From an uncultured Candidatus Saccharibacteria bacterium (GTDB lineage Bacteria; Patescibacteriota; Dojkabacteria; J137), in NCBI GenBank assembly GCA_964635995.1, contig CAZWRA010000001.1, forward strand, positions 226 through 64,225: a stretch of DNA of 64,000 bases, read 5' to 3'. The translations under genes and the position numbers were made by a program. The notes beneath the pieces were generated by a model that was not told where the DNA came from, ran no database searches, and saw nothing but the letters and a program-made list of their open reading frames with translations. Shown piece after piece: positions 906 through 40,793 of this stretch (the first letter of the stretch is position 1; every line of letters starts with the position of its first letter).

Positions 906-2222
906 TTGAAAACTTCTAGGCAAGCAATATGGAACAGGGTTCTTATTATCTATTTTTATATATTTATAATAACTGTCGTCTTGTGGTTTTTAGAAAAAAA
1001 CTTCTATAGTATTGAACTTAATTCTTCTCAGATCTTTAGATATATTGGTCAAATAACAGGAGTACTGGCTATTAATTTTTTAGGATTAAACTATTTACTT
1101 TCTACTAGATTCCGGTTCATTGAAAATATTTTAGGTGGATTAGATAAACTATATAGAGTTCATATTTATACTGGCTTAACAGCTTTTGTTCTTCTATTAG
1201 CTCATCCAGTTTTTCTAAGTATTCAAAATATTGAGTTTAATGAAATATTTAGAAGTTATTTTATTCCTTATGAATCAAATGCACTTGCATTAAATTTAGG
1301 AATCGCAGGATTCTGGTTTTTTCTTGCAGTATTATTTTTTGCGAGTAACAGAAAAGTTTCATATACAGTTTGGAAAATAGTTCATGGATTTATTGGTATT
1401 CCATTATTGATAATATCAGCTCATATTGTCTTAGCTGGGAAATCATATGAATATATTCCTTTAGAAATGTGGACTTCTACATGGATTTTAATTGGAATAT
1501 TTTCTTATGTTTATAAACTTTTTCTTTATGATCATATAGGACCAGTTTTAATTTATACGGTTGAGAAAATAGATAAAACTGAAGAATTATTTGAAATATT
1601 TTTAAGACCTGTTGATAAAAGTTTGAAATTCAAAGCTGGACAATTTGCATTTTTGCAATTTTTAGGTTCAAAAATTTCAATGGAATCACATCCATTCACA
1701 ATTTCATCTGAACCTTCGAATTCAATGTTAAAATTTTCCATTAAGAAATTGGGAGATTGGACTAATAAGCTAGATCTTTTAGAAGTCGAAGATAAGGTAA
1801 AAGTAGCAGGACCATACGGTCATTTTCATACTGATAATTTGAGAAAGTCAAAGAAGCAAATTTGGATTGGGGGAGGTATAGGTGTGACTCCTTTTCTTAG
1901 TATGGCAAAAGATCAAAAATATTGTAAAAATTGTGAAGATATTTATTTAATATACTCCGATAATACTAGAAACCAAGCAGTATTTATAGATGAAGTTAAA
2001 TCATATGATAGTATGAATGAAAATTTAAGAACAATACTTCATATTTCAGATGATCAAGGTTTTTTAAATGCAGATCAAATAGAGAAATGGGTAGGTGGAA
2101 TCGAAGATACAGTATTTCTTATTTGTGGACCAAAACCAATGAGAGATGCTCTTTATAAACAATTAAGAAAGAAAGGAGTTAAAGATAGTGATATTGTTTT
2201 TGAGTTGTTTAACTTTAAGTAA
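906..2222 (+). CDS. Ferric reductase / NOX-like membrane oxidoreductase (N-terminal multi-TM domain + FAD-binding HPFTISS + NAD-binding GGGIGVTPF)
   Basis: Motifs HPFT(I)SS and GGGxGxTP are typical of the FRE/NOX FAD- and NAD-binding domains. The N-terminal region is hydrophobic. TTG start per ORF track. Confidence 0.75.
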   Translation: MKTSRQAIWNRVLIIYFYIFIITVVLWFLEKNFYSIELNSSQIFRYIGQITGVLAINFLGLNYLLSTRFRFIENILGGLDKLYRVHIYTGLTAFVLLLAHPVFLSIQNIEFNEIFRSYFIPYESNALALNLGIAGFWFFLAVLFFASNRKVSYTVWKIVHGFIGIPLLIISAHIVLAGKSYEYIPLEMWTSTWILIGIFSYVYKLFLYDHIGPVLIYTVEKIDKTEELFEIFLRPVDKSLKFKAGQFAFLQFLGSKISMESHPFTISSEPSNSMLKFSIKKLGDWTNKLDLLEVEDKVKVAGPYGHFHTDNLRKSKKQIWIGGGIGVTPFLSMAKDQKYCKNCEDIYLIYSDNTRNQAVFIDEVKSYDSMNENLRTILHISDDQGFLNADQIEKWVGGIEDTVFLICGPKPMRDALYKQLRKKGVKDSDIVFELFNFK

Positions 2223-2225
2223 ATA

Positions 2226-2296: not shown

Positions 2297-3136
2297 TCAC
2301 TTTATTAAGAATAGAATTGCTGTTGCTAATAATACCATACTAAGATACTTTCCTAAAATTGAGGTTTCAAGCTTTTTTGTATCAAAATAGATCTCTGTTA
2401 AAGCTAAAAGTGAGTAAAAAGTCAGAACAACATGAAGACCTATAAAAGAGCTGGGGACATCTTTAAAACCTAAATTTAAAATTAAAAGCACTATCGAGCT
2501 TATGTATGCTATTGATGATGAATTAAAGAAAATTACATCTTTTGAATTCCTCTTATAATAGTTAAGAGTTATTAGTAAAAAGAAAAGAATAAAGAAAAAC
2601 AAGATAAAGACAACGAAAGAAAGATATATGTTCAAAGTTTCAGAAAAGATCTTGTGAACAGAAATGGAAAGGAGATAAACTAAAATTAATTTATGTGAAT
2701 CAATTCCAACACCTTCATATGATTTAACCCTCATTTCTTCTTCATGGTTTGAATCAACATACTTAAATAAACCAACAAATCCTAAAAATAAAATGATTGA
2801 AGAAAGAAAATAAGAAAACCCAGATCCACCGCTTAAACCATAAATCATTAAAATAACTAGGTTTACAACTGGAATAAAAATAACGTTAAATAGGAAAGTT
2901 TTTCTAATTGTTTTATTATCTTTAGGAAGAGATAAATTGTTAAATTTTAATAAATCACCGTAAAGCAAAAAAATCTCAATCAAAAATATAAAAACTGAAG
3001 ATATAAAGAATATTAAAAAGTTTCTTAGATTTTGTGCAATTGTAAACTCTTCCACACTTAGAAAGGTTCCTAATAAAATAGCTATTGAAAAAAAAGAGTA
3101 TCTGGCGTATCTTAAAACATGTTTACTATTTTCCAT
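2297..3136 (-). CDS. Polytopic integral membrane protein, function unknown
   Basis: Long ORF of mostly hydrophobic segments (at least 8 predicted TM helices by eye). No recognisable catalytic motif. Confidence 0.5.
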   Translation of the reverse strand: MENSKHVLRYARYSFFSIAILLGTFLSVEEFTIAQNLRNFLIFFISSVFIFLIEIFLLYGDLLKFNNLSLPKDNKTIRKTFLFNVIFIPVVNLVILMIYGLSGGSGFSYFLSSIILFLGFVGLFKYVDSNHEEEMRVKSYEGVGIDSHKLILVYLLSISVHKIFSETLNIYLSFVVFILFFFILFFLLITLNYYKRNSKDVIFFNSSSIAYISSIVLLILNLGFKDVPSSFIGLHVVLTFYSLLALTEIYFDTKKLETSILGKYLSMVLLATAILFLIK

Positions 3137-3201
3137 ATCTCATGTTAATCTCTAAAAATTTTAATAATTATAGCCTCATTAAATTTTAATGTCTTCTATA
3201 G

Positions 3202-4713
3202 ATGAAAAAATATAGCCTACGATTTCAGTTTACAGATAGAGTCTTCAAATTTACAGTGCCGGGAATAGGAAATAATTTAAATTTCAAGCAAAGACTGTTA
3301 GAAATTGCGACTTCTTTACGAAGCAGTATTTTCTTACTCTTTCTAAGTTTAATTCCTGTTTCAATGTATTTTTATGATCAGGTCTCCCGAGTAGGTTTAG
3401 AGAGTTCACTTTTGATATACCTGACCTTAGGATTATTGGTTGTTTCATCTTTTTACATAATTGAAGTATTTATTGTATCGAGAGAAAGAGTTATAGATCC
3501 TAAAGGATCATTTGCAATCCTAATTTTCGGACTTTTAGTAACAGCATCTTCAGCATTTTTAGTTTTTACTGATTATGAGTCGTCAGAAAATACTTTTGGG
3601 GACGTGTCTGAGATTGCAATAAAAGGATTAGCTGGTCTAACAATTATTATTCTAATGGGGATTTATTATTATATTAGCCTTCATAGATTTCAATATGGTA
3701 AAGGAAAAAAACTGCTTACGTCCTTTGGAATTGGTTTAATTATTTTTGGGTTAATAGGATTAGTGGATGAAAGATTAAGTTTAGATTTACTTGTATATCT
3801 TGTTGGAATTCCAATATTATTTGCAGCTTTTGCAGTTACTACTGGGAAGTTCTTAAAGCTATTGCTTGGAGCTGGTATTGGTTTGTCTATTTATAATATT
3901 GTAAGATTTCCTTGGTTTGAAGATGCTTACACTATATTTCTAACATCATTGGTTATTACTTCATTAATAATTTCATATTTTGTATTTTCTTTTGGATTTG
4001 ATCATTTATCTAACTATTTATCAAATTATAGAAAAGATTTAATATCAATTTTTGAATCAATAAGAAAGTTTAAATTTATTAATTCTGAAGTTTTTCAAAA
4101 GGTTTTGAAAATATTGATTCTTCCTTCTTTAATAATCTTACCTATAACGATTCTTTTGTTAGCTTTATTTTTAATTGGAAATGGTATTAGAACTGAAGTC
4201 TTTAATGGAGTTCTAATAAGTTATGAAACAGCATTTTCAAGAATAAACGATGATCTTATTACTCTAATAACTGGAACAGGAGCTGGGCTAACAACTGTGA
4301 ACTTTCCACTAGGTGCTTCTATAATAATTGCAAATGGAATATTAGGGGTTATTGGATATCTAGTTCTTTATATTTTTGCATTTATAGAAAGTATTAAATT
4401 ATTAATTAAAGAATCAAAAACTCTTTTACAATTCTTTGTAAAAGTATGTTTAACAACAGTAATAATATTTGTTCCAATTTTCTCACTATTCGCTTATCCC
4501 TCATTATTTGTGATTCTTTCATGGTGGGTAGTTCTTTCATTAATTTTAGAAAATAAGTATAAAAATAAATTTATTTATACTCCTGAAATCGAGTCATCAA
4601 TAAAGCAAAGGAGATTTACAAAAATTATTAAGACACTAAGTTTATTGACACTGTTTATTATCTCGTATATCTTGGTATATACAGTAATTAATAACATTGG
4701 AATTTTATTTTAA
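3202..4713 (+). CDS. Large polytopic membrane protein (at least 10 TM), possibly a Wzy/O-antigen-polymerase-like or other glycan-handling permease; function unknown
   Basis: 503-aa ORF that is almost entirely hydrophobic helices with short loops. Assignment beyond membrane protein is speculative. Confidence 0.5.
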   Translation: MKKYSLRFQFTDRVFKFTVPGIGNNLNFKQRLLEIATSLRSSIFLLFLSLIPVSMYFYDQVSRVGLESSLLIYLTLGLLVVSSFYIIEVFIVSRERVIDPKGSFAILIFGLLVTASSAFLVFTDYESSENTFGDVSEIAIKGLAGLTIIILMGIYYYISLHRFQYGKGKKLLTSFGIGLIIFGLIGLVDERLSLDLLVYLVGIPILFAAFAVTTGKFLKLLLGAGIGLSIYNIVRFPWFEDAYTIFLTSLVITSLIISYFVFSFGFDHLSNYLSNYRKDLISIFESIRKFKFINSEVFQKVLKILILPSLIILPITILLLALFLIGNGIRTEVFNGVLISYETAFSRINDDLITLITGTGAGLTTVNFPLGASIIIANGILGVIGYLVLYIFAFIESIKLLIKESKTLLQFFVKVCLTTVIIFVPIFSLFAYPSLFVILSWWVVLSLILENKYKNKFIYTPEIESSIKQRRFTKIIKTLSLLTLFIISYILVYTVINNIGILF

Positions 4714-4716
4714 GTA

Positions 4717-5394
4717 GTGTCAAGAGGTAAAAAACTTACAATTGCAGTTCTTTTAGTTCTAACGCTTGCTTTAGCAGCTATCTCAACTTACGTAGCTCTA
4801 ACTTTAAATTCCGAACGAACTCCAGATGTAGGAGTTTCTGGATTTGGAGATTATGCAACTAGAGATTTATACGAGAACATAACTGTTTTCTTCGGAGGGA
4901 AAGACTGTGATGAATTTCTAAATAGTAATTTTTTTACTAATCAGACATTTGATAATTCGACTGTGTTTTCTTTCTCAAGTATTGAGAATAATTTAGAGGA
5001 TTTCGGTGCCTATGAATATCTTCCAACTTCATGTTCATATGTTTTACAAAATGATAATCGATTAAATTTCTTAGTTTATTCTTATGACTATGACTCATTT
5101 ATTGCAGAGTCAAGAGAAGAACTTTACTCAAGAATAAATGTTTTTGATCAAGTTCTAGATGAAGGAACATTTTCTAATACTGACTATTTTTTTGGAATTG
5201 AAAATGACAAATGTGTAACTCATTTCTTTCAATTAGATAATGAATTTGAGTATGCAAGATTAGAATACAACGTGGGTGAGTTAGATTGTTCAACTTTAAT
5301 AGAAGATAATAAAGCATTTAGTTCTAGAATATCTAGTGAATTAAATGAAACTGTTGAAACTGTAGAATATGTTACTAAATTAGAGTCAATATAA
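4717..5394 (+). CDS. Secreted / membrane-anchored protein with N-terminal signal-anchor; unknown function; likely co-transcribed with the downstream Cys-rich surface protein (TAATG overlap)
   Basis: GTG start directly after the upstream stop. N-region SRGKK followed by a hydrophobic h-region. Acidic, aromatic-rich mature part. Confidence 0.45.
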   Translation: MSRGKKLTIAVLLVLTLALAAISTYVALTLNSERTPDVGVSGFGDYATRDLYENITVFFGGKDCDEFLNSNFFTNQTFDNSTVFSFSSIENNLEDFGAYEYLPTSCSYVLQNDNRLNFLVYSYDYDSFIAESREELYSRINVFDQVLDEGTFSNTDYFFGIENDKCVTHFFQLDNEFEYARLEYNVGELDCSTLIEDNKAFSSRISSELNETVETVEYVTKLESI

Positions 5395-8300
5395 TGAATA
5401 ATAAAATTCTTTTACTACTTGGAATACTTGTTTTATTTGTTGGAGGAATTCTCTCTTTCCTTTTTGTACAAGGAGGTGGAAAGCTTCCTTTTGATGCTGG
5501 TGTTAGTAGTTGTGCAAATCCTGCTGATTTTCCTTGTGGACCTATAACATGTCCTGACGGAACTACTTTTGGCTCAGATCCATGTACTCCAGCTGGTTTT
5601 GGTTCATGTGGAGCTCGAGAAGCACAAGCTTGTGCTGGTCACCAAGGCGGTGGTGGTAATACTTGTAGTGGAGCTGGAAACGCAGGTGCTTGCGGAACTG
5701 TAGGACAAGTTGTAGCTTATTCAGGCGGTACATGTATATGTACAAGAACAACAGGAACACTTTGTGCATGTGTACCTTCAAATGGTTCAGGATGTGTGCA
5801 TGTGAATGATGGATGTAATTCAGTGGGAGAATCATGTAGTAAAGGAGGTCAGTATGGAACCTGCATAAATAACGGTAATGAAACTGTAAATGGAGTTGTT
5901 GGAATTAAATGTTCATGTAAAGTAGCTCCTGTTCAAGGTTCTGTTTGTGGTAATGGTAGTTGTGAACAGGGTGAGACTAATCAAAGTTGCCCAACAGATT
6001 GTAATAGTGAATGTGGAAATGGAACATGTAATGCAGGGGAAAATGTTAACAACTGTCCTGCAGATTGTACTTCAAATGGTGATCAGCAATGTGTGTCTGA
6101 TGGACAGTGCGGCAGCACTCAATATTGTGATTTAAATTTTAGAAAATGTTTATCTAAAAAAGGTGAAAATGGTTCATGCTCAGCTAGCAATCAATGTTTA
6201 AATGGAGACTGTGTAGATGGTCTTTGTGCAAAAACATGTACAAGGAGATCAGATTGTAATGTAGGTCAGTATTGCGAGAGCGGAACATGTAGAGCTGCAA
6301 AAGCTAACGGAGCTAATTGTGGGACCGCAGATGAATGTATTAGTAGAATTTGTGAAGGTGGACTTTGTCTTGCACAGGGAACTGGAACTAGCGGATGTTC
6401 ATTCGATTCAGATTGTACTAATGGACAAATTTGTAGCCCAACAACAAAAACATGTATAACTCCTGGAACTAATAATGATTGTACTAGTAATTCTGAATGT
6501 GCTGCTGGTTATATTTGTGCTTCAAATAGATGTAGACAAGAGGTAGACGATTCAGATCCTAATGTATCTTGCGTAAGTGGACGTTATTATTGTGGACCTG
6601 ATTTTGGTTGTGCTCTAGGTTCAGGAAAAATTTGTAATAATGGAAGTATTTCAGGTTCAACTTGTACTGTAGCTGACGCTTGCGCTTATCAGGTGCAAAG
6701 TGGAAATGTTAGTCCTGGAGGCTCTTGTGTAGGAGTAACTAGACTTAGTGCTGGAGAATCTTCAAGAGGAGGTTTTGTTGGATGTAATGGGACTCAAAAT
6801 TGCTTCTGCCCTCACCAATCAGGAGTAGGCGTAGGAGGAATATATTCAGGAGGTTCAGTAACTTGTTTTGAAGATATTGGTGGAGACTCATGTGGTGCTA
6901 CTGATAATCCAGAACCTCCAATAACTGGGGGTAACCAGCCAATTTGTAGTCAATCATGTTCAACATCTAACCCATGTTCAGATGGAACTAGTTGTATTAA
7001 TGGTGTATGCAGAAATCCTGATTGCCCAAATGATGCGGACTGTAGTTGTAACACTACTCTTCCTATTTGTAATCAAACATGTAACCAAAATAATTGTGCT
7101 GACGGTACAAGCTGTGTTAACGGTACTTGTCAAAATCCAAGTTGTTTAAATGATGCAGATTGTATTTGTTCTATAGACTCAACACCTTATTGTGGAGATT
7201 CAATCTGTCAGGCTGGTGAAACTTGTGAAAGAGCAACTGCTGGTTCAAGTAACTTCAGAGATTGTACAACTAATATATTAGTACCTGAATGTAGAGGAAT
7301 TGCTACTCAACCTCCAACTCCTGCTGGTGTATGTAATTATTGTGGAGATGGAGTTGTAAATGGTCCTGAGGAGTGTGATTATAATTCCCCAGGATCTGAA
7401 AATTGTGATACAAATTGTACCCAAACAATTTCTGCATGTATTTCACTTGAAGAGAATGGACCTGATCCATTACGATCTGGAGAAGGCAATGTTGTAGAAT
7501 ATACATTAACATATAGTCAATCTGGAACTGGTAATCCTTTCCCTTCAATTGTACTTAGAGTAGGTCCAGCTGGTGGAGCTGTTGGTAGAGATGCAAATAA
7601 TACAACTAGTGCATTAGTAAGACCATTCGCAGTTCCTGCAGCAAATGATACCGGAAATACTAAAACATATAAATTCTTATGGGAAGCTGCTGAAACAAAT
7701 GGAAATGCTGTTGCTGATGGAACTTATGATGTAAGAGTTCTATTACAAGGGACAGACAGTACAGCAATCTCTACAGCCGCTTGTCAGGAAACAATTACTG
7801 TTTCTTCAACAACAACACAATCAACAGTATTTACTATTGTAAAATCATCAGCAGAAGTTTGTCTTTCAAATGGAGATGCAAGAATTAACTATACAATTAG
7901 AGTGACAAACACTGGACCTGTTGAAGGTACTATAACAGAAGTTACTGATACACTTGACTCAGATGTTGTTTCTGCAGGAATCATTCCATCAAACATAAAT
8001 CCAACTTATGGGACATATTCTTCAGGAGTTATTACTTGGGTTGGAAGTGCAACAGACAGAACTTATACTTCTGGACAATCAAAAACATTTACTTACGATT
8101 TAACAATTCCTGCTGCATTAGTACCTTCATTTACACAAAGAGGTGTAGATAATGAGGCTACAGTAAGACACGAAAACAATGTTTCTACCCATGAAGTAAA
8201 CACACCAGTATCATGTACAATTAAAGTACCTCAAAAGAAGGTTCCAGAAACTGCTGTATTTAGTGATCCATCTCTTTACGTAATATTTGGCTCACTATTA

Positions 8301-8435
8301 GTTGTTACAGGAATAGTTGTATATAAACTAAACATTGGTAAATTAGCTGTAAGTGGACTAGGTGGAATCTCAATTCCAACTTCAAAAAGTTCATTTGAAA
8401 AGAATGCTCTTGGAGATATTAAAAAGAAAAAATGA
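5394..8435 (+). CDS. Giant cysteine-rich cell-surface protein: N-terminal signal anchor, about 600 aa of tandem 6-Cys EGF-like/Cys-knot-like modules, a Myxococcus-type cysteine-rich repeat (CGDGxxxxxEECD…), DUF11-type (conserved repeat domain) Ig-like repeats, C-terminal VPETA + TM + basic tail
   Basis: Repeated modules C-x4-6-SD-x-D/Q-C-x2-GQ-x-C-x4-6-C (e.g. CVSDGQCGSTQYCDLNFRKC, CTRRSDCNVGQYCESGTC, CSFDSDCTNGQICSPTTKTC). CGDGVVNGPEECDYNSPGSENCDTNC matches the DUF4215/Myxo cys repeat. INYTIRVTNTGPVEGTITEVTDTLD matches the DUF11 signature. Hydrophobic C-terminal segment LYVIFGSLLVVTGIVVY. Confidence 0.7.
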   Translation: MNNKILLLLGILVLFVGGILSFLFVQGGGKLPFDAGVSSCANPADFPCGPITCPDGTTFGSDPCTPAGFGSCGAREAQACAGHQGGGGNTCSGAGNAGACGTVGQVVAYSGGTCICTRTTGTLCACVPSNGSGCVHVNDGCNSVGESCSKGGQYGTCINNGNETVNGVVGIKCSCKVAPVQGSVCGNGSCEQGETNQSCPTDCNSECGNGTCNAGENVNNCPADCTSNGDQQCVSDGQCGSTQYCDLNFRKCLSKKGENGSCSASNQCLNGDCVDGLCAKTCTRRSDCNVGQYCESGTCRAAKANGANCGTADECISRICEGGLCLAQGTGTSGCSFDSDCTNGQICSPTTKTCITPGTNNDCTSNSECAAGYICASNRCRQEVDDSDPNVSCVSGRYYCGPDFGCALGSGKICNNGSISGSTCTVADACAYQVQSGNVSPGGSCVGVTRLSAGESSRGGFVGCNGTQNCFCPHQSGVGVGGIYSGGSVTCFEDIGGDSCGATDNPEPPITGGNQPICSQSCSTSNPCSDGTSCINGVCRNPDCPNDADCSCNTTLPICNQTCNQNNCADGTSCVNGTCQNPSCLNDADCICSIDSTPYCGDSICQAGETCERATAGSSNFRDCTTNILVPECRGIATQPPTPAGVCNYCGDGVVNGPEECDYNSPGSENCDTNCTQTISACISLEENGPDPLRSGEGNVVEYTLTYSQSGTGNPFPSIVLRVGPAGGAVGRDANNTTSALVRPFAVPAANDTGNTKTYKFLWEAAETNGNAVADGTYDVRVLLQGTDSTAISTAACQETITVSSTTTQSTVFTIVKSSAEVCLSNGDARINYTIRVTNTGPVEGTITEVTDTLDSDVVSAGIIPSNINPTYGTYSSGVITWVGSATDRTYTSGQSKTFTYDLTIPAALVPSFTQRGVDNEATVRHENNVSTHEVNTPVSCTIKVPQKKVPETAVFSDPSLYVIFGSLLVVTGIVVYKLNIGKLAVSGLGGISIPTSKSSFEKNALGDIKKKK

Positions 8436-8728
8436 TTGAAGCATTATTCTGGGTAGTTTTAAGATCAGTTGCAATTCCTTATATAGCTTTTCTTATTCTA
8501 AAAGATACATTTTTAGGTGAAGAAGGTGCGTTACTAGCAATAGGAATTGCTTTACTTATTGTTACAATTATTTCTATTACATTAAATGCTATTAAGATTA
8601 TAGGAAACATACTGCTTTTAAGAGGCGAGAAAGTTATAATTCTAATCCTAAAAATAGCTATTCAAGTTCTTGTAGTATTATTTATCTGGATACACTACTT
8701 CTCACAATATTCTGATTTACTAAATTAA
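8432..8728 (+). CDS. Small membrane protein (2-3 TM), unknown; ATGA start/stop overlap with upstream gene
   Basis: 98-aa hydrophobic ORF translationally coupled to the 1013-aa gene. Confidence 0.4.
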   Translation: MIEALFWVVLRSVAIPYIAFLILKDTFLGEEGALLAIGIALLIVTIISITLNAIKIIGNILLLRGEKVIILILKIAIQVLVVLFIWIHYFSQYSDLLN

Positions 8729-8763
8729 TTACTCTTTTTAGGCTATAATTAGAGGATTATTAC

Positions 8764-12086: not shown

Positions 12087-12243
12087 CAGAATATATATAA
12101 TAAATATTGTTATTTGCGCTTTTGCGCTTATCCATTTACTAAAATTCTCGGAATCGAAAACTTACGTAAATGGACAAATTCCTTAAATTTTACCAAAAAA
12201 ATGAAATTTTATCCCTTTTTTATTCTAGATAGTATAATAATCT

Positions 12244-12564
12244 ATGGTTTCAAAGGAAAATAGACTTACTAAAACAGAGATTTCAAATGCAATGGAAAAT
12301 GGTAAAAGATTTAGAAACGATCTTTTTGATTTAAAACTCCTAAAAAGTGAATCTTTATCTAAAATAGCAGTCATAATTTCAAAAAAAGTCTCTAAAAAAG
12401 CAGTAATTCGAAATAAGATCAGACGACTTATAAAGCAATGGTTTCTTGAACATTCTAATGATTTTGAGCCAAAAATGTACGTTTTTATAGCAAAAAACGA
12501 AAATATTAGAGATTTAAACACAGCTAATTTGCATGAACTAGTAAAACTAACCTTAAACAACTGA
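12244..12564 (+). CDS. rnpA: Ribonuclease P protein component
   Basis: Size (106 aa) and the RNR motif region KKAVIRNKIRRLIKQ. TATAAT-like -10 immediately upstream. No rpmH found upstream. Confidence 0.75.
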   Translation: MVSKENRLTKTEISNAMENGKRFRNDLFDLKLLKSESLSKIAVIISKKVSKKAVIRNKIRRLIKQWFLEHSNDFEPKMYVFIAKNENIRDLNTANLHELVKLTLNN

Positions 12565-28993: not shown

Positions 28994-29734
28994 GTGCATT
29001 TTTAATAATAACAATTTCTGTTTTAAATTTTTTTTGCAGGATTTATACTTTCCGATCTTGTAGATACTCGTTATAAGTCGACTTGGAATTCTATTCTATA
29101 TGAAAATACTTTTAAAAATTCAATTGTTGGACTTGTAGCTGCATATGCATCTTTGCCCCTTTCACATTACTATCTTCTAGAAAATCACGATATTGTTTAT
29201 ACGCTTGCATTCTTGATTTCTAATATTATGTTACTGCTTTTAATATTTTCATCTTATTTTGATATTCAATATTTTAAAGTATTAAATGGATTAACTAAGT
29301 ACTCAATATTTTTTCTTATTGTATTAAATATTGGAGCATTATTTATCTTTACTAATCAAAACGACATATTACTATTTAATAATTTAGATTTTAGACCTCT
29401 AGATAATTTAGTTGCAGGTTTCTTTTCTTGGTTTGTAACATTAAGTATTGTTAAGCTTTCAAATGATAAGGGCATGGGTGAAGGAGATATTAGAATAGCT
29501 ACAATTATTGGTTTGTCTTTTGGAATCTCGAAGGTAATTTTAGCAATGTACATAGCTATTTTCAGTGCAATTTTATTTGGATTATTTGCAATGGTACAGA
29601 AACGTAATAATACATACTTAAGATTAAAACTGCCTTTTGTTCCATTTCTAGTTTTTGGAGCAGTTGTATCTCTCTATCTTACAATAAATGCAAATGATAT
29701 TTTCATTTTCATAGAGAATCTTCTATTCTCTTAA
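28994..29734 (+). CDS. pilD: Prepilin (type IV pilin leader) peptidase, A24 family; start uncertain (frame open back to a GTG at about 28994; ORF track ATG at 29153)
   Basis: C-terminal A24 motif GMGEGDIRIATIIGLSFG within a multi-TM protein. Convergent with the pilus gene cluster. Confidence 0.65.
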
Positions 29735-30109
29735 TACACTATAAGGATCAGTAGAGATATTTATTTCATAATTTCTAACAAAATTTGTATCAAGATTTGT
29801 TGAAACTACCTTGATATTTCGAATTGATCCACCTGGATTAGTTACTGTAGCTGAACAAATATCAATACCATCAAATCTTACATCAAAAACTCCAGTATAG
29901 TTGTTATCTTGTTTAATTCTTAATATTCCCTCTTCTAAACACGTAATTGATTTTAAATAACTAACTGAGTAATCACTTAAGTTTCTACTAGTTTTATTAA
30001 TATCAATTGTATTTAATACAAGGGTTACAGCACCAACTGTAAGTATAGCTGTAATAACAATTACAGTTGTCAACGCTACACTTGCTTTTTTAGTTTTTTT
30101 ATAAGACAT
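29723..30109 (-). CDS. Pilin-like / pseudopilin protein with N-terminal TM helix
   Basis: Short basic N-terminus followed by hydrophobic helix (KKASVALTTVIVITAILTV…). Last gene of the pilus operon. Confidence 0.4.
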   Translation of the reverse strand: MSYKKTKKASVALTTVIVITAILTVGAVTLVLNTIDINKTSRNLSDYSVSYLKSITCLEEGILRIKQDNNYTGVFDVRFDGIDICSATVTNPGGSIRNIKVVSTNLDTNFVRNYEINISTDPYSVLRE

Positions 30110-30575
30110 AAATAGTACTTAATGATTCAGTTACTCCAGGGTTTTTGTCATAAGCTAAAGTTATACTAAGTTCTACACCTATAATTTCATTATCAGCATT
30201 TTCAATCTCTGTAAAAATAAACTCCTGAACAATTTGACTTTGTAAAGTTATAATGGACTGATCTGCAGTTTCAGTTCTAACTAGTCTATTATTTTGAACT
30301 GAAAATGAAATATCTCCAGAGGCTGTATTAAAAATTAATGTTCCATTATTCAAGTCGAAATCACTTGATTGATCAATTGTTGATGCTCTTTCTGCTACAT
30401 CTAGTAATTCTTCATTAATAATAATTAATGATTTCTGCATTTCACCCCTGTTTAGTGAAAGTCTCTGATATTCGTTAATTCTTATCCCGAATTGAACAAT
30501 GACGATAAAAGCAACTCCAAACAATGTTAAATATACTGTGTTTTCAAGAAGTGTTATTGCTTTCTTATATCTCAT
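30099..30575 (-). CDS. Pseudopilin / minor pilin-like protein
   Basis: Degenerate prepilin N-terminus (KKAITLLENTVYLTLFGVAFIVIV) with Glu at +5-like position. Confidence 0.5.
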   Translation of the reverse strand: MRYKKAITLLENTVYLTLFGVAFIVIVQFGIRINEYQRLSLNRGEMQKSLIIINEELLDVAERASTIDQSSDFDLNNGTLIFNTASGDISFSVQNNRLVRTETADQSIITLQSQIVQEFIFTEIENADNEIIGVELSITLAYDKNPGVTESLSTIYVL

Positions 30576-30636
30576 CTTGTATAGACTAAGCTAAAATCTT
30601 GAAATATCGGACTAGTAACTCCATCTGATTGAAAAA

Positions 30637-32478
30637 CTAACCTGTACTGAAAATATCTTTATTCTGTACTTCATCTGGTAAAAATTCCCTCTCGCCATTT
30701 GTAAAATAAGTACTTCCAGTATTGTCAGGTCCAACCCAATTCGCTCCTGACATATCCGAGTTATCTGGTGCTCTAACTTGAAGTTCTAAACTTGTATTAC
30801 CAGGAATAGAGCTTGTCCATTGAATTAAGTGATAGCTTGGATCATTATATGTAGTATCAAAAATACTAGAAATAAACTCACCTTCTTCTTCAAAAGAACT
30901 TCCTCCAGATCCTAATCCTCCTTTAATAACTCTAAATTCTTCATTCGAAGCATTTCCAATAACGTAAGAAAAAACATCCTCTAGCGGAGTTCTTACAGAA
31001 GTTACTCCATTAAAACCTGATGGAACATCTAATCCTCCACAATATTGAATATTTGTAATATTAGTAATGTCTACAACCTGATATTCTTGCCCGCCATATC
31101 CTACAATAACAACCCTGTCGTCTGTAACAGTATTTCCTGTAACACTCATTCCATTAGTATCGTAAGAATCGAGAATTGGAACAGATCCTGTTTTATTTGT
31201 AGAATCCAAAATAAAAAATTCATCCCAAAAACTTGAGTAGGTTGTTCCAATAAAAACTCGATTTCCATCCTCGCTAACATAAAGATCTGATGATTGAGAA
31301 AAATTCAAATCTTTATTCTTTACTACTCTTATATCGCTTGGATTTGTTATGTTTACAATTATAAGTTCATACCAGTCATCATACATAGAAAGAAAAGCAT
31401 AATTACCTCTAATTTCAATTTCAGTTATATATCCACTAGAAAATAACCCAACTGTTAAAGAATCTAGTTGCGGCCTTGAGCCTATCTTTGAAGATAGATC
31501 AAATGATCTTAATACTCTTCCTTGAGCAACATAACCTACATTTCCATTAACATAAACACTTGTTGGATCAGTAGTTCCACTTGCATCGAAATATCCAATC
31601 TCGCTGTAGGGAGCAGTATCAGTATCTAAGATAACAACCTCTCTATTGTCTGTAGTGGTAGCTAAATAAGTGTAATTTGCATCTCCATATATTCCTGTTG
31701 TTGAGTAGCCTGAAAATTCAGCTTCGATAGTTACTCCTGCAGGATCTGTTGAGTGATCAATTAATAAGTTCTGAAGAGAATAACTTGTTGAACCTAGAAA
31801 AGCTTTTCCTGGAATTGAACTAACAATTGTAGGTATACCATTCCCAGGAATATCATAAATTGTCTGAGTAAGCTCCGGTTGACACCAATTAGAAAAAGCT
31901 GGGCTAGCTAGCTGAACCTCACCTCCAAAGTCATTAGAAACAATAACAGTATCTAGTGTTCCTGAGTTAAACTCATTTTCTGTTGTATCTACCCATTCAC
32001 TAGTATGCCAACTGTTTAAAAAGAAAGTTGAAAATATTGAAGATTCTTCTCCAGCCACATTATTCCATTTAGCTGTAATTATTACTTGTTTTGATCTAGG
32101 ATCCAATGTTCCTACAGTACTTACAAACTGACCATTAATATCTCGTCTTGCAGGACTTACTGTAAAACTTATAGAAAATCCTCCTGTAATAAATTCACCG
32201 TTAATAATTTCAGCTTCCCCATTTACTATTTGTATATGTCTTGGATTAGAATCAGAAATTGCAAGGAGCTCTCCCCACTTTTCATCTTTTAATATTTCAA
32301 TTCCTTGTATTGTTTCTTGAATTAAAATTTGAGCCTCACTTCTAGTTCTTTGATTAACATCAGATCTTAATGCATCTACACTAAACAAGGAAACGGTTGT
32401 AAAAACAAAAGAAAATAAGGCAACTGCTAAAACAAGTTCTATTAATGAAAATGCTTTTTTGGTTTCCTTATCTTTCAT
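30637..32478 (-). CDS. Large (613 aa) type IV pilin-like protein, candidate tip adhesin / PilY1-functional analogue
   Basis: Prepilin-type N-terminus KAFSLIELVLAVALFS followed by a long Ser/Thr/Gly/Asn-rich beta-rich domain. Confidence 0.6.
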   Translation of the reverse strand: MKDKETKKAFSLIELVLAVALFSFVFTTVSLFSVDALRSDVNQRTRSEAQILIQETIQGIEILKDEKWGELLAISDSNPRHIQIVNGEAEIINGEFITGGFSISFTVSPARRDINGQFVSTVGTLDPRSKQVIITAKWNNVAGEESSIFSTFFLNSWHTSEWVDTTENEFNSGTLDTVIVSNDFGGEVQLASPAFSNWCQPELTQTIYDIPGNGIPTIVSSIPGKAFLGSTSYSLQNLLIDHSTDPAGVTIEAEFSGYSTTGIYGDANYTYLATTTDNREVVILDTDTAPYSEIGYFDASGTTDPTSVYVNGNVGYVAQGRVLRSFDLSSKIGSRPQLDSLTVGLFSSGYITEIEIRGNYAFLSMYDDWYELIIVNITNPSDIRVVKNKDLNFSQSSDLYVSEDGNRVFIGTTYSSFWDEFFILDSTNKTGSVPILDSYDTNGMSVTGNTVTDDRVVIVGYGGQEYQVVDITNITNIQYCGGLDVPSGFNGVTSVRTPLEDVFSYVIGNASNEEFRVIKGGLGSGGSSFEEEGEFISSIFDTTYNDPSYHLIQWTSSIPGNTSLELQVRAPDNSDMSGANWVGPDNTGSTYFTNGEREFLPDEVQNKDIFSTG

Positions 32479-32927
32479 TATAAATTTATAACTCCTGAAG
32501 AGTTAATAATTAAATTTATTGAACTTGATCCGCTCGTTAGAACAATACTACCAGTTCCTACTGGTCTATAGTCTCCTTGATTAAATCTAAGTTCATTTCC
32601 TGTCGCATTAAATACAGCACTTTCTATACTTATTCCAAAAGGTAATTCTTTAACTTGAGTCTCAGTTGCACTAGCTAAATTATTTCCTGTAAAAAGTGTA
32701 TAACTTTCCTCAGCAAAAGATATTCCAAAAGATGAATCGTCAAGACCTGAATAAGCATTTTGTTGTTGAACAAATATATCTGAACTTATTCTTCTGGCTG
32801 TATTCGTTAGATCATTTCTTCTAAATTCGTTAGCTGCTACAGGAACAAACAAAAACCCAGCTAAAGAGACTATAGCCAAAACTAGAATAAGCTCAATTAT
32901 AGTAAACGCATTCTTCTTATCCGACAT
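32478..32927 (-). CDS. Minor type IV pilin
   Basis: Class III signal: KKNAFTIIELILVLAIVSLAGF (Phe+1, Glu+5). Confidence 0.7.
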   Translation of the reverse strand: MSDKKNAFTIIELILVLAIVSLAGFLFVPVAANEFRRNDLTNTARRISSDIFVQQQNAYSGLDDSSFGISFAEESYTLFTGNNLASATETQVKELPFGISIESAVFNATGNELRFNQGDYRPVGTGSIVLTSGSSSINLIINSSGVINL

Positions 32928-34060
32928 TAATACTTCCTGTTAACTGATAGATAGGTCCTACAATAATAATTGCTAGGAAACCAATCATTGCTCCAATAAA
33001 TACTAATAAAATTGGTTCTAATAATGTCGATAGATTGTTTGAAAGCTCTTCAACTTCTTCAGCATGATATTCATATAAATAACCTAAATTTTCTTCAAGA
33101 GTACCAGTACCTTCCCCCAACCTCAATCATTTTTATAAAGGAAGGAGGAAAATACTTTGGGTAGAAAAGTAGTGAGGATGCAACTGACTTTCCACTTTTT
33201 ACCTCATTTGCAACATCTTTTAAGGCTTTTTTATAGTAAGTGTTACTTACAGTGCCTGTTGCAATATCAAGAGCTGATACTAATGGAATCCCTGTTTCTA
33301 AAAGAATACTTAGTGTTCTTGCAAATGAAGCTAAGATGTTATGTTGTGTAAGTTTTTTAATTACAGGAAATTTTAATGAGAACCAGTCTTTAAACTTTTT
33401 TCCAGATTTTGATCTTAAGAACATAATAAAAAGAAAAATTGCTAATGCTAATCCTCCAGCTAGAAATAAAGCATTTGTACGTATAAATGCAGAAGCAGCA
33501 AGTATCCCTTTTGTTAAAGGTGGAATATTTTCAAAAGATGTAAAAAGCTCTTCAAGTTTTGGCAAAATTAAAAATATTACTCCAAGCATTTCAACAAAAG
33601 TCAGCATAAATACAATCGCAGGATAGATTAGAGCTCCTTGAACTTTTTTTTCCAAGAGTGTGTGCTTTCTTTAAATAATCAGAAAGAAAAAAAGGTTTTT
33701 CCCAAAGTGCCTTCCTGCTCACCAACAGAAATTACAGACATGATAATGTCTGAAAAAACTTTTGGATACTTTCTCATTGAATCAGACAAAGTCATTCCAT
33801 CACTAATCATGCCAGCAATTTCAATGTATTTTTTGAAAGTCTTTCGTCAGCAGTTTGTTCAGAAAGAGTAAGAACTGCATCATTCAAAGCAAGTCCAGAT
33901 CGTAACATAAGATATAGATTTCTTATTGAAACCAAAACTGCAAGTTTAGGTATACCACTAAAATAAATCTGTCCTCCTTTTTTCTTTTTTTGGGTAGTTT
34001 TCTCTCTTTAGCCATTATTCTTTTAATGCAGTTACTCTCATTAATTCAGATAATGAAATC
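32917..34060 (-). pseudogene. pilC: Type IV pilus / T2SS platform protein PilC/GspF, disrupted by at least two frameshifts (pieces 32917..33126, 33095..33655 and further fragments 33660..34060 in other frames)
   Basis: GspF-domain motifs in three different frames. They are …LETGIPLVSALDIATGT… …FPPSFIKMIEVGG, then LEPILLVFIGAMIGFLAIIIVGPIYQL, and upstream fragments …IRNLYLMLRSGLALNDAV… / ISDGMTLSDSMRKYPKVFSDIIMSVISVGEQEG. ORFs 33095..33655 and 32917..33126 overlap by 32 nt. Confidence 0.7.
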
Positions 34061-34065
34061 ACTCC

Positions 34066-35297
34066 TTATCTTAATTTCTCAACACCATCTTCAACAATTA
34101 ATTTAAGACCTTGTCTTCTTGCTTCGTTATAAATTTGATCAGTGTCAGCTCCAGCCATTATAATTTTTCTTATGCTTTCAGTAATTTCTAATACTTCATA
34201 AAGACCAATTCGGCCTTTGTATCCATTTTCTACAGATCCTTCAGGTACATTTGGTGCAAATAATTTTTCCCCAACTTTTAAATATGCAGCTAAGTCGGGT
34301 CTATATACTTTTAGTTCTTCATATTCTTCATTTGTTAACCTCACTTCCTTCTTTTATTGTTCGTCAATTTTTCTAGCTAAACGTTGCGCTATAACAACAT
34401 TTACTGTTGTTGCGAGTAAGTATGGTTCTACACTCATATCGATAAGTCTAGGAATTGTAGTTACAGCATCATTAGTGTGAATAGTAGATAGAACTAAGTG
34501 CCCTGTCATTGCGGCATTAGTTGCAATTTTAGCTGCCTCGGAATCTCGAATCTCTCCAATCATAATTACATTAGGATCCTGTGTCTTAGAATTGATCTCA
34601 GTCCGTTACTGAATGTTAAACCAGCCTTTTTGTTAACTTGAACGTGATTTATTCCATTAATTTCATATTCTACTAGATCTTCAACTGTAGTTATATTTAT
34701 ATCTCTAGAATTTATTGTTGTTAAAATTGCGTAAAGAGTTGTTGTTTTACCAGATCCTGTTGGACCTGAAGCAAAAATCGATCCATAAGGTTTTTTAAAT
34801 GCTTTTTTAACAATTTCATAATCTTTATCTCTTAGTCCTAAATCTTCAAGTTCAAATGATCTACCTTTTTGTGTTAAAAGTCGAATTATAACTTTCTCGC
34901 ATTTAGCTGTTGGAAGAATAGAAATTCTTGTATCTAACTTATCCTCAAAATCAAAAGCAATTCTTCCGTCTTGTGGCGCGAAATGTTCATCAGTTCGAAG
35001 CTTTGCATTAACTTTAATTTTAAATACTAATGTTTCTTCGTATCTTTTTTCTATTGTATAAAGGTCTTTTAAAATTCCATCTATTCTATATCGAACAACC
35101 ATATTATCTTCATGAGGTTCAAGATGGATATCAGAAGCACCTTTATTTAAAGCCGTTAAAACTATATCATTAAGCATTCCTGTTATACCTCTTTCCTTAC
35201 CATCCTGTTTCCCCTCTTCAATTAATGGTGCATCATCGGATTGTATTATCTCTTCTTCTTTTATAGATGTGTTTAATGACTTCTTGGCCATAATCAT
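34066..35297 (-). pseudogene. pilB: Type IV pilus assembly ATPase PilB/GspE split in three pieces (34566..35297, 34354..34563, 34066..34344) by one frameshift and one in-frame TAA
   Basis: Piece 1 ends …[18 protein letters not shown] but the -1 frame reads [14 protein letters not shown], joining Walker B. Walker A is GPTGSGKTTTLYA and the His box is [13 protein letters not shown]. Pieces 2 and 3 are in the same frame, separated by TAA (…ARKIDEQ*KKEVRLTNEEY…). C-terminal piece has GYKGRIGLYEVL. Confidence 0.8.
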
Positions 35298-35312
35298 AGT
35301 TTAGAATAAATA

Positions 35313-35345
35313 AAAAAAGACCTCAACAATTGAGGTCTTTTAAAT
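35313..35345 (-). terminator. Rho-independent terminator hairpin downstream of the major pilin gene (perfect 8-bp stem GACCTCAA/TTGAGGTC, loop CAAT, flanked by A-run and T-run; potentially bidirectional)
   Basis: Plus-strand sequence aaaaaaagacctcaacaattgaggtcttttaaa between the pilin stop (35362) and the pilB start (35297). Confidence 0.55.
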
Positions 35346-35361
35346 TCTTTTATTTAAGAGT

Positions 35362-35823
35362 TTATCGAGAAACTGAGATTGTAGTACCTTCTGCATCCGG
35401 TGCTGCGATTGTTACTCTTCCACTTGCTTCTTCGCAAATTGTATAACCTGTATCAGCTCCAGTTCCTGTTGAAGGATCCTGAGGAATTCCTACAATGTAT
35501 GTAGGTGTTAATGCTGTAGCAAGATCAGCATCTCCAGTTCCAATAACATCAGTTAATGGACAAGCTTGGAAAGAACCTCCAACAACTCCAGCAGCTGTTG
35601 CTAGTGAGTCTAAGTCGTTTCCTTGTTCTGAAGTATATTGTGTTACAGCATTTAGAATCTGTAATACATCTGAACTTCTTTGTGCATTTCTTGTGTCTCT
35701 AAAGTTTCTTGCAGGGTTAATTGCAATAAATGTAATTGTTGCAAGAATTGCAATTAAAGCAACAACTACAAGGATTTCAATAAGTGTGAATCCTTCTTTA
35801 TTTTTTTCTTCATTTTTATTCAT
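35362..35823 (-). CDS. pilA: Type IV major pilin (PilA-like)
   Basis: Canonical prepilin leader and N-methylation motif KEGFTLIEILVVVALIAILATI (G-1, F+1, E+5). 153 aa. Confidence 0.85.
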   Translation of the reverse strand: MNKNEEKNKEGFTLIEILVVVALIAILATITFIAINPARNFRDTRNAQRSSDVLQILNAVTQYTSEQGNDLDSLATAAGVVGGSFQACPLTDVIGTGDADLATALTPTYIVGIPQDPSTGTGADTGYTICEEASGRVTIAAPDAEGTTISVSR

Positions 35824-39584: not shown

Positions 39585-40793
39585 TTAATACTTTTTTCCA
39601 ACTAAATTTTTAGGCATATACTCCTGTTCTACTTTCTTTCCATTTTTCTCCTCTAGCCAAGGATATCTCGTATGTCCTTTTCCATACCCATGCTCTTTCA
39701 TTACTTTATTTGGAGCATTTCTAAGATGAAGTGGAATTGGATCAAGAGGTTTATTATGAATATCGCTGATTGCATTACTTATGCCTTCAGTTACAGCAAT
39801 TGATTTAGGACAAGAAGCTAAGTAAGTAGCGCATTGAGCTAAGATTAATTTTGCTTCAGGCATACCGATCATATTAACAGCTTGCATTGTTGAGGTAGCT
39901 ACAACTAAAGCAGTAGGTTTTGCATTTCCGATGTCTTCAGAAGCAAATATAACCATTCTTCTTGCAATAAAAACTGGATCTTCTCCTGCTTCAATCATTC
40001 AAGAAAGATAATGAAGAGTAGCATCTGCTTTTCCTCCTCTCATTGATTTAATAAAGGCAGAAATAGTGTCGTAATGTGCATCTCCCTTTTTATCGTATAC
40101 ACCAAATTTTTGTTGAAGAATATCTGAAACAATCTCTCGAGTTATTTTTTTATTGATTTTAGAAGCGAATTCTAAAGCATTAATAATTTTTCTTGCGTCT
40201 CCGTCTGCAAATGCAATTAAAAACTCTATCGCATCCTCATCCCATTTAATCTTTTTTATCTCTTTATTTGCTCGATTAAAAACTTCTAAGCATTCTTCAT
40301 CGCTTAACTTTTCAAATCTAAATACTCGACTTCTTGAAATTAAAGGAGCATTAATTTCAAAACCGGGATTTTCGGTTGTTGCTCCAATTAAAATTATAGT
40401 TCCGTTCTCAACATAGGGAAGAAATGCATCCTGTTGAGCTTTATTAAATCTATGAATTTCATCTACAAATAATACTGTTTCTCTAGCTTCTTCAATTTTT
40501 CTATGTTCAGCTAACTTTACAATCTCTCTAACTTCTTTTATTCCTCCAGTTACAGCTGAAAATGAAACAAAGTGTGCTTCTGTATAGTTTGGAATTAATC
40601 TGGCTAAAGTAATTTTTCCACATCCTGGAGGTCCCCAAAAAATCATTGAAGAGATATTACCTGATTCAATAATTTTACGAAGAGGTTTGTTCTTTCCTAG
40701 AATATGTTTTTGACCAATGAATTCATCAAGATTCGTCGGCCTTAGACTTTCCGTTATCATCCTTCTTTCTACCTGATGTAAAAAGCGTAACAA
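39585..40793 (-). pseudogene. rarA: Replication-associated recombination protein A (RarA/MgsA AAA+ ATPase) interrupted by an in-frame TGA at 39999..40001; probable true start MITESLRP at about 40760
   Basis: N-terminal ORF has Walker A GPPGCGKITLARLI, Walker B VLFVDEIHRFNK, sensor motifs. The downstream ORF is contiguous and in-frame and encodes the MgsA_C domain (MIEAGEDPVFIARRM…PKSIAV…HLRNAPNKVMKEHGYGKGH). TGA aligns with a conserved Arg (…HYLS*MIEAGEDP vs …YLARMIEAGEDP). Confidence 0.8.

Follow-up and report, generated by a model that had tools for sequence, protein, structure and literature searches.

Bacteria belonging to the Candidate Phyla Radiation (CPR, or Patescibacteria) are thought to depend on other cells, and the molecules with which they attach are largely unknown outside a few cultivated Saccharibacteria. 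The closest described precedent comes from Peribacteria, a CPR lineage encoding large cysteine-rich extracellular proteins with a proposed role in attachment and weak similarity to Myxococcus repeats, together with a protein for disulfide formation and a sortase A (Anantharaman et al. 2016, PMC4736985). Sortases occur in more than half of CPR genomes, and the MdbA-like oxidoreductase, VKOR and sortase families are CPR-enriched (PMC6744442). A second reference point is the CLIPPER domain, the new name of DUF11, a CnaA-like stalk domain of fibrillar adhesins that carries a Lys-Asn isopeptide bond with a catalytic Asp and, in ~30% of cases, a disulfide (PMC12617251). Here we analyze a 64,000-nucleotide (nt) stretch from an uncultured Candidatus Saccharibacteria bacterium placed by GTDB in Dojkabacteria (contig CAZWRA010000001.1, positions 226 to 64,225; hereafter the window), and in it the gene at 5394..8435 on the forward strand, which encodes a cysteine-rich protein of 1013 amino acids (aa). 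We assign a probability of roughly 0.6 to its being a fibrillar-adhesin-like, Sec-exported, heavily disulfide-bonded Dojkabacteria surface protein that is anchored by an LPXTG-like signal and acts in attachment.

In the model that we favor, the protein would be exported by the Sec pathway and then oxidized outside the cytoplasm. A [LIVT]P-x-T-[GAS] motif (VPETA), a membrane segment and a charged tail would hold it at the membrane, where a sortase most likely cuts the VPETA signal and links the protein to the wall. Membrane-proximal immunoglobulin-like (Ig-like) and CLIPPER domains would form a stiff stalk. Beyond this stalk, disulfide-knotted spacers (CGNG repeats, Dickkopf_N/DUF7107-like 8-Cys units and a variable-copy 41-aa repeat) would carry two lineage-specific cysteine-rich domains, namely an N-terminal CxC module and a central 'FVGC-NCFC-DSCGA' domain, the latter as the likely ligand-binding head. 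An exported 225-aa protein encoded immediately upstream is a probable partner subunit or folding/assembly factor, and the probable role of the protein is attachment to a partner cell, a host cell or a substrate. An earlier sequence-only reading of this gene is confirmed in part as an observation and supported in part as an interpretation; its core, a modular, disulfide-rich, exported surface protein with an Ig-like stalk, is supported by domain scans and models.

Architecture, proposed stalk and proposed anchor of the 1013-aa protein

The protein is composed of the following elements.

5394..8435, forward strand: cysteine-rich surface protein gene, 1013 aa, from the list of open reading frames (ORFs)
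5394..5477, forward strand: putative N-terminal export signal or signal-anchor, aa 1-28, with K4 and a hydrophobic stretch at aa 4-25 (hydropathy scan)
5511..5921, forward strand: N-terminal cysteine-rich module with paired CxC motifs, aa ~40-176
5946..6068, forward strand: two 'CGNGxCExGE..CPxDC' mini-repeats, aa 185-225, without a Pfam match
6090..6533, forward strand: three 8-Cys Dickkopf_N/DUF7107-like units, aa 233-278, 282-325 and 335-380
6519..6905, forward strand: central conserved cysteine-rich domain, unannotated, aa 376-504
6942..7169, forward strand: diverged tandem duplication of a ~41-aa 8-Cys unit, aa 517-552 and 558-592
7191..7439, forward strand: CGDS.../CGDGVVNGPEECD... region, a sub-threshold Myxococcus-type repeat, aa 600-682
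7440..7808, forward strand: predicted Ig-like beta-sandwich, aa ~683-805
7824..8213, forward strand: CLIPPER (DUF11, PF01345) domain, aa ~811-940, with K817/D852/N920 and C823/C941
8241..8255, forward strand: VPETA, an LPXTG-like motif, aa 950-954
8274..8324, forward strand: C-terminal hydrophobic membrane segment, aa 961-977 (hydropathy; predicted helix at aa 960-978)
8325..8432, forward strand: charged, putatively cytoplasmic tail of 36 aa ending in KKKK, with conserved K978, F1001, E1002 and D1008

The ORF list bears out the gene and its length, and the ~90 cysteines claimed earlier prove to be 92, 89 of which lie within aa 40-682. Cysteine makes up 9.08% of the protein, compared with 0.67% across the other 66 ORFs of the window. 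The locally higher GC had been attributed to amino-acid composition, and this holds, because the excess sits at codon position 2 (GC2 of 0.56 versus 0.32 in other genes) while GC3 is below the window mean (0.115 versus 0.177 +/- 0.028). The codon usage is native to the host genome; horizontal transfer as the source of the raised GC is ruled out by a GC3 below the genome mean, and nothing points to a foreign origin of the gene.

An identical protein is present on one NCBI contig and one Logan contig, and MCA9380633.1 (Candidatus Dojkabacteria) belongs to an orthologous cluster. A search of 5.8 billion proteins returned four full-length relatives at 38-51% identity. Synteny or domain searches added a 1065-aa protein that is 61% identical (L006), a partial sequence (L007), P0023, P0024 and a 916-aa protein (L013), where P00xx denotes related proteins and L0xx related loci. 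In total, there are ~10 full-length orthologues, with identities of 38-61%. A 1049-aa paralogue in L002 shares only the C-terminal cassette, which starts with the CGDG region and continues through the Ig, CLIPPER, VPDTA, membrane-segment and tail elements, and which shows a stalk-and-anchor module whose heads are exchangeable.

Domains were called by segment-wise hidden Markov model (HMM) scans against Pfam and NCBIfam, listed to E<=10 and judged by curated or gathering cut-offs. The segment at aa 805-945 alone matches DUF11 with 30.1 bits (cut-off 24.6), a score that falls to 22.5 bits, just below the cut-off, in the context of the whole protein; TIGR01451 reaches 22.9 bits, below its cut-off of 24. 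AlphaFold2 folds this domain as a beta-sandwich with a predicted local distance difference test score (pLDDT) of 79-90. K817, D852 and N920, as well as C823/C941, are invariant in 10/10 sequences from three lineages. Taking the isopeptide roles and the strand placement of the triad (first-strand, mid-domain and late-strand, respectively) from the published description (PMC12617251), K817 and N920 probably form an isopeptide bond under catalysis by D852, accompanied by a C823-C941 disulfide. Two DUF11 domains had been claimed, of which this one stands. The other (aa ~683-805) has no DUF11 match, its sole match being FlgD_ig at 16.1 bits (cut-off 27), and is modeled as beta strands with a pLDDT of 66-81. 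For the Ig-like/CLIPPER region, Foldseek returned tandem Ig-like domains of a generic kind (such as those of integrin legs, Bap, SdrG and EbpB; adhesin/pilin stalks), with the CLIPPER structure 9IFR not among the top matches.

The VPETA motif is followed by six residues (VFSDPS), the hydrophobic segment and a lysine-rich tail. P951 and T953 are invariant in the orthologues, while the preceding linker is variable. Orthologue pentapeptides read VPETA, IPETA, VPSTA, VPITG, TPNTA, IPNTA and IPDTG, and those of more distant relatives LPDTA, IPETS, IPETG, LPSTG, LPATG and LPETG. A [LIVT]Px[TSA][GAS] motif followed by a hydrophobic segment is found at the C-terminus of 24 of the 57 proteins in which the central domain is truly present. 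This continuum to canonical LPETG/LPATG is the best evidence for VPETA as a sortase-type signal, which is plausible, and it backs by comparison the LPXTG-like C-terminus proposed earlier.

At the other end of the protein, the leader is predicted to be helical at aa 3-28 (AlphaFold2), with a basic n-region (K4), an h-region of ~21 residues and no clear AxA site. A lipoprotein signal (VSSC, aa 37-40) was ruled out, since its distance from the h-region is too great and orthologues do not keep it. The leader of the 225-aa protein family, GKK.T[IL]..LL.LT..LA..S.Y[VI]AL (4717..4850 in the window), resembles those of several cysteine-rich orthologues (5394..5480 in the window), and the HMM of the 225-aa family matches the N-termini of orthologues in L004, L008, L011 and L014 with E ~1e-6 to 1e-3. 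The leader common to both may be a specialized export or anchor signal.

Several observations weigh against a sortase-anchored adhesin. For a signal peptide that is cleaved off, the hydrophobic stretch at the N-terminus is long, and anchoring at both ends is therefore conceivable. No sorting-signal HMM (e.g. TIGR01167) matches aa 940-1013 in NCBIfam at E<=10, and the 36-aa tail, with invariant F1001, E1002 and D1008, is unlike the short tail of known signals. A search for sortase and Dsb genes, as proposed earlier, returned none in the 64-kb window: a TLxTC-type motif scan and Pfam scans of nearly all ORFs identified no sortase gene, no thioredoxin/DsbA or VKOR gene is present in the window, and phmmer with an S. 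aureus SrtA query found no homologues among the window ORFs and 14 related loci. The one TLxTC-type motif match (58655..59431, reverse strand) falls within the gene for DNA polymerase III alpha and was ruled out as a sortase. In addition, the whole-protein AlphaFold2 model (five sequences) is poor, with a mean pLDDT of 47.6; PDB searches with the single CLIPPER sequence and with a 10-sequence profile did not align the domain to 9IFR and returned only chance matches to reovirus lambda-1; and ligand binding by the protein is a prediction.

Many of these points would also be expected of a protein that is permanently embedded in the membrane, uncut by sortase, either as a type I or as a doubly anchored protein whose tail contacts a cytoplasmic or membrane partner, such as the 98-aa protein encoded downstream, in the role of a receptor or envelope tether. 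The length of the hydrophobic segment near the N-terminus is that of a transmembrane helix, no sortase was found in the window or the related loci searched, and comparable charged tails of 25-50 aa occur in relatives. In canonical sortase signals the tail is short and is discarded, whereas this one is long and conserved, which suggests a function of its own. The 98-aa gene is ATGA-coupled to the 1013-aa gene, and its product, at 62-78% identity, is more conserved than the 1013-aa protein itself; however, it is absent beside the orthologues in L013, L010, L015 and L017. Moreover, the P-x-T-[GAS] core lies just outside the membrane and is strictly kept while its surroundings vary, and it grades into LPETG/LPATG, a pattern that would be difficult to account for if no enzyme processed it. 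We therefore treat permanent embedding as possible, yet clearly second to sortase anchoring.

The central domain and its cysteine-rich surroundings

The central domain (aa 376-504) is the best-conserved stretch of the protein, with a mean column identity of 73% versus 56% overall among orthologues, and has the signature DAC...SC.G..R.S.GE...G.FVGC.G..NCFC...V.C..D...DSCGA. A profile search of 1.84 billion cluster representatives matched only 58 proteins at E<=1e-3, and for 34 of these the match reached E<=1e-10. These proteins have diverse architectures almost without Pfam annotation: a Pfam scan of 34 other central-domain proteins detected DUF11 or DUF7507 in two, and DUF7927, DUF7107 and Dickkopf_N in one each. 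The domain is reused in other secreted architectures, including shorter secreted proteins without an anchor. In contigs of one genome per species, it occurs only in metagenome-assembled genomes (MAGs) labeled Dojkabacteria (two), Saccharibacteria (two), 'Patescibacteria group' (one) and Pseudomonadales (one).

Six cysteines, the serine of S-x-G-E (S452), FxGC, NCFC (N469), D494 and the S-C of DSCGA (S499) are invariant, and C430, E455, V462, D428 and D498 are kept in >=90% of central-domain sequences. The conserved core spans ~80 residues with seven conserved cysteines; an eighth, which would allow four disulfides, is assumed. The AlphaFold2 model of the domain is confident (pLDDT 89) and matches no structure in the PDB, the one database searched with Foldseek. 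Given its conservation and distribution, the central domain is likely to be the functional, ligand-binding head.

Around this domain, the segment-wise scans returned no Pfam/NCBIfam match for aa 30-185, 180-230, 380-510, 510-600 and the C-terminus. The N-terminal CxC module has invariant cysteine positions in the orthologue alignment and a weak AlphaFold2 model of beta strands (pLDDT 45-60); its signature 'GG.C.C...LC.CVP..G..C' recurs in P0037, P0039, P0066 and L15_921. The CGNGxCExGE..CPxDC repeat that follows accounts for the low-coverage matches P0006-P0021 (secreted trypsin-like proteases and similar), whereas the match to P0018, a protein from a Deltaproteobacteria-labeled MAG, is caused by Dickkopf_N-type units.

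These units lie within the scanned segment aa 225-385, which alone scores 47.0 bits for Dickkopf_N (PF04706; cut-off 25, three stretches) and 42.1 bits for DUF7107 (PF23416; cut-off 24.6, four stretches), and 20.8 bits for TIGR04201 (Myxo_Cys_RPT), below its cut-off of 25; on the whole protein, Dickkopf_N scores 25.7 bits. PDB profile matches to Draxin and Dkk4 are weak (E 0.06-0.18). The units have eight cysteines, versus ten in the Dkk/colipase-type fold, and AlphaFold2 pLDDT values of 28-63. At least eight copies of a cysteine pattern had been described here; the literal pattern has no match, and a relaxed 4-Cys pattern yields six half-units at aa 233-380, i.e. three 8-Cys units.

C-terminal of the central domain, a tandem duplication described earlier as 'near-perfect' turns out to be diverged, with 23 identical residues over 40 alignment columns (~64% over a 36-residue core) and 66% nt identity, with all eight cysteines kept. 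Copy number of this ~41-aa repeat (C.Q.C....C.DGTSCINGVCRNP.CP.D.DC.C) varies from one in P0002-P0004 and two in the window protein to three in L006 (12190..15387) and at least three in L007 (8707..10707), where PPEDPPEVPP linkers separate the copies. The next segment, aa 595-685, scores 17.3 bits for TIGR02232 (cut-off 20.8) and 12.2 bits for DUF4215 (PF13948; cut-off 27), and neither family matches the whole protein at E<=0.1. The CGDG unit thus resembles the Myxococcus repeat to which it had been assigned, without belonging to it.

The protein had further been called EGF-containing and eukaryote-like. No EGF-family HMM matches any segment at E<=10, the nearest being an EB module at E 0.06, and the Dickkopf_N-type units also occur in Deltaproteobacteria-labeled proteins and resemble TraA/TIGR04201 repeats. 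Among the families named in the sequence-only reading, DUF11 was thus recovered, once, and DUF4215, EGF-like and TIGR02232 were not. Many secreted proteins of bacteria contain such cysteine-rich mini-modules, whose presence therefore does not point to a link with eukaryotes.

The abundance of such modules raises an alternative to adhesion, in which the protein is a structural envelope component, S-layer-associated or a wall-spanning spacer, whose cysteine-rich modules confer rigidity and bind no specific ligand. Most of the protein indeed consists of small disulfide-rich repeat modules of variable copy number. The cysteine-rich repeats of Myxococcus TraA serve as rigid stalks, and a weak match to the NF033759 TraA repeat region agrees with such a role. 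Rigidity through high cysteine content has also been proposed for the Peribacteria proteins (PMC4736985). The family is rare, however: full-length orthologues number ~10, and clusters with the central domain number 58 among 1.84e9 representatives. This counts against a structural role, because one would expect to find a core envelope protein across the whole lineage. Moreover, conservation peaks in a discrete domain that is not repetitive and has invariant polar residues (S452, N469, D494 and S499; E455 in >=90%), a pattern that better fits a binding or active site. We consider a purely structural role unlikely, and less likely than permanent membrane embedding.

An active site would instead make the central domain a small extracellular enzyme or toxin module and the protein a displayed effector rather than an adhesin, and this fits the (near-)invariant D428, S452, E455, N469, D494, D498 and S499 in a compact, confident model without known relatives and the presence of the domain in shorter secreted proteins without an anchor, but it is very improbable, and also less likely than membrane embedding, given that Pfam/NCBIfam scans and the PDB structure search revealed no similarity to any catalytic family or fold, that binding modules typically have such a core, ~80 residues long and with seven conserved cysteines, and that the surroundings are those of an adhesin stalk.

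Neighboring genes and other features of the window

Four genes adjoin the 1013-aa gene.

4717..5394, forward strand: candidate exported partner protein of 225 aa, with an N-terminal leader, four conserved cysteines and a 'NEFEYA' motif; translationally coupled
8432..8728, forward strand: small membrane protein of 98 aa, ATGA-coupled downstream
3202..4713, forward strand: polytopic membrane protein of 503 aa, first gene of the probable transcription unit
2297..3136, reverse strand: polytopic membrane protein of 279 aa, divergent, containing no cysteine

The stop codon of the 225-aa gene overlaps the start of the 1013-aa gene (TAATG), as noted earlier, and the stop of the latter overlaps the start of the 98-aa gene (ATGA). 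Since, in addition, no terminator-like site was found in 2100-9000, the 503-, 225-, 1013- and 98-aa genes (3202..8728, forward strand) are probably co-transcribed. An operon with two large membrane proteins had been suggested; the 503-aa gene lies on the same strand and fits this proposal, whereas the 279-aa gene lies on the opposite strand.

The 225-aa protein has no family match in Pfam/NCBIfam. In the window, L006, L007, L003 (as a fragment), L013, L010 (twice), L015/L016 and L017, the gene immediately preceding that of a central-domain protein encodes a member of this family, a pairing that spans otherwise unrelated genomic contexts in at least three lineages. The gene is missing in L004, L008, L011, L012 and L014, and is replaced by the 1049-aa paralogue in L002. 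The link proposed earlier is thus real and recurrent, and the conservation of this pairing identifies the 225-aa protein as a frequent, not obligatory, partner. More tentatively, and with less weight than the membrane-embedded alternative, one may picture the central domain as a new, Patescibacteria-confined disulfide-rich fold that forms with the 225-aa protein a recognition complex for host or partner attachment, displayed through a non-canonical sortase signal with a functional tail.

The membrane proteins fare differently. None of the 503-, 279- and 98-aa proteins has a family match in Pfam/NCBIfam. The 503-aa protein, with only four homologues and no Pfam match, is confined to fully syntenic loci. 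The 98-aa protein is 62-78% identical in L002, L004 and L006, L008 encodes a 97-aa homologue that the family HMM detects at 5e-47, and the family is absent from L010-L017. All three genes occur only where the whole neighborhood is kept, housekeeping genes included (M23 peptidase, ferric-reductase-like protein, HD protein, LigT, GatC, RNase J-like protein, RnpA, PheS and UvrD-type helicase), and not beside the orthologues in L013, L010, L015 and L017. Because they co-occur only in syntenic loci, their linkage may be plain inherited synteny, and their proposed role as export or anchoring machinery finds no backing. Two specific candidates were rejected: the 279-aa protein as an exosortase/archaeosortase-like enzyme, as it contains no cysteine, and the 503-aa protein as a PMT-type glycosyltransferase, an idea that arose because PMT genes adjoin related cassettes in L010, L015 and L017 (hhalign probability 0.1).

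Those three loci come from a second lineage of Patescibacteria, and their surface-protein cassettes have, upstream and in divergent orientation, a gene for a PMT-family protein O-mannosyltransferase (PF02366 + PMT_4TMC; L010 403..1983, L015 6258..7835 and L017 6850..8433). The cassettes comprise an LPNT[GS]-anchored ~450-490-aa CLIPPER-type protein, a 225-like gene and a central-domain protein, and the proximity of Ser/Thr-rich proteins to PMT genes hints at O-glycosylation. Downstream of the distant orthologue P0005, L003 encodes a 507-aa membrane protein (3370..4893) with a weak match to HTTM, a vitamin-K-dependent carboxylase-like transmembrane domain; it has no BLASTP similarity to the 503-aa protein and was ruled out as its relative.

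Upstream of the cluster, 906..2222 on the forward strand encodes a NOX/ferric-reductase-like membrane flavoprotein (Ferric_reduct + FAD_binding_8 + NAD_binding_1) that adjoins the M23 peptidase gene. The pair is kept in those Dojkabacteria loci that include the upstream flank (L002, L006 and L008); any link of the flavoprotein to extracytoplasmic redox chemistry is pure speculation. Further downstream, a 111-aa ORF at 12225..12560 on the reverse strand is probably a shadow of rnpA at 12244..12564 on the forward strand, because the corresponding position of the syntenic loci L002, L006 and L008 carries a Ribonuclease_P (PF00825) call.

Elsewhere in the window, several genes are interrupted or incomplete. 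A rarA/mgsA-type AAA+ gene (39585..40793, reverse strand) is split into two ORFs by an in-frame TGA at 39999-40001 (...ADATLHYLS*MIEAGEDPVF...), with AAA and AAA_assoc_2 upstream of the stop and MgsA_C downstream; the TGA could be a sequencing error, a pseudogene mutation or a read-through site. A type IV pilus cluster at 29153..35823 contains an A24 prepilin peptidase, several pilins with N-methyl motifs (one of 613 aa), T2SSE and T2SSF. Its T2SSE ATPase (34066..35297) is broken into at least three pieces by frameshifts, and T2SSF is represented only by a 186-aa fragment (33095..33655). An Ldh_2 (malate/L-lactate dehydrogenase) match at 46453..47438 on the forward strand extends over two overlapping ORFs in different frames (46453..46719 and 46698..47438), which suggests a frameshifted gene. 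A 127-aa ORF at 59753..60136 on the reverse strand matches only positions 1-106 of the 378-position DUF3095 model and looks truncated.

The window also encodes, on the reverse strand, a Y-family polymerase (47428..48705; IMS, IMS_C and DUF4113) and a separate S24 LexA/UmuD-like peptidase (51076..51567), with several small ORFs without a family match between them. An 899-aa AcrB/RND-superfamily transporter is encoded at 61128..63827 on the reverse strand (ACR_tran, E 1e-103); the lineage of the source genome is usually regarded as lacking an outer membrane.

Comparison with known systems

The Peribacteria proteins likewise come from small CPR genomes, are large and cysteine-rich, and have a proposed role in attachment (PMC4736985). 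Together with the CPR enrichment of MdbA-like, VKOR and sortase families (PMC6744442), they contradict the earlier remark that such architectures are unusual for small-genome bacteria. They belong to a lineage other than Dojkabacteria and are not among our search hits, and the two groups are compared by description, not by sequence. The central domain, CxC module, CLIPPER stalk, LPXTG-like tail and paired 225-aa gene are not described for them (PMC4736985).

The CLIPPER fibrillar adhesins (Costa et al. 2025, PMC12617251; PDB 9IFR) have the same layout, with an export signal, a distal putative adhesive region, a CnaA-like Ig stalk and a sorting signal; the Lys/Asp/Asn triad is conserved in the 1013-aa family, with a predicted disulfide beside it of the kind present in ~30% of CLIPPER domains. 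They differ in carrying a tandem array of CLIPPER domains, versus a single one here, and known adhesive domains, in place of which the distal part of the 1013-aa protein has disulfide-rich mini-modules and two unannotated domains.

With Gram-positive LPXTG substrates (MSCRAMMs and pilins, and also Bacillus proteins with the class D signal LPNTA), the protein shares a pentapeptide with invariant P and T, a hydrophobic segment and a basic tail. The spacer after the motif is acidic (VFSDPS), as it is in protein A, where it reads EENPF; relatives carry canonical LPETG, LPATG and LPSTG. The first residue, however, is V/I/T and the last A/G/S, the tail is 25-50 aa long and keeps certain residues, no sortase gene was found next to the locus, and TIGR01167-type HMMs do not match.

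Myxococcus repeats (TIGR02232/DUF4215 and TIGR04201; TraA stalk) are resembled by the CGDGVVNGPEECD...C..NC motif and by the 8-Cys units through weak matches, all of which are below cut-off, and there is one CGDG unit here rather than an array. Eukaryotic Dickkopf_N (PF04706) and DUF7107 (PF23416) score above their gathering thresholds, with similar cysteine spacing and weak Dkk4/Draxin matches; here, however, the 8-Cys units stand in tandem in a bacterial surface protein, and their fold has no confident model. The unit is also found in the Deltaproteobacteria-labeled P0018. Nothing indicates a recent transfer from eukaryotes, and codon usage is native.

Cysteine-rich exported proteins, sortases and extracytoplasmic disulfide formation are thus already known in CPR, and this general picture is unchanged. 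The new elements are the central domain, the 225-aa partner family and a variant signal with a long tail. They make the locus a concrete, testable attachment candidate, with a recognizable stalk and anchor, a lineage-restricted and confidently modeled putative head domain, and a recurrent partner gene. The family widens the range of LPXTG-like CPR signals, from VPxTA to LPxTG within one family, and brings a CPR member to the CLIPPER isopeptide domains, which have been defined only recently.

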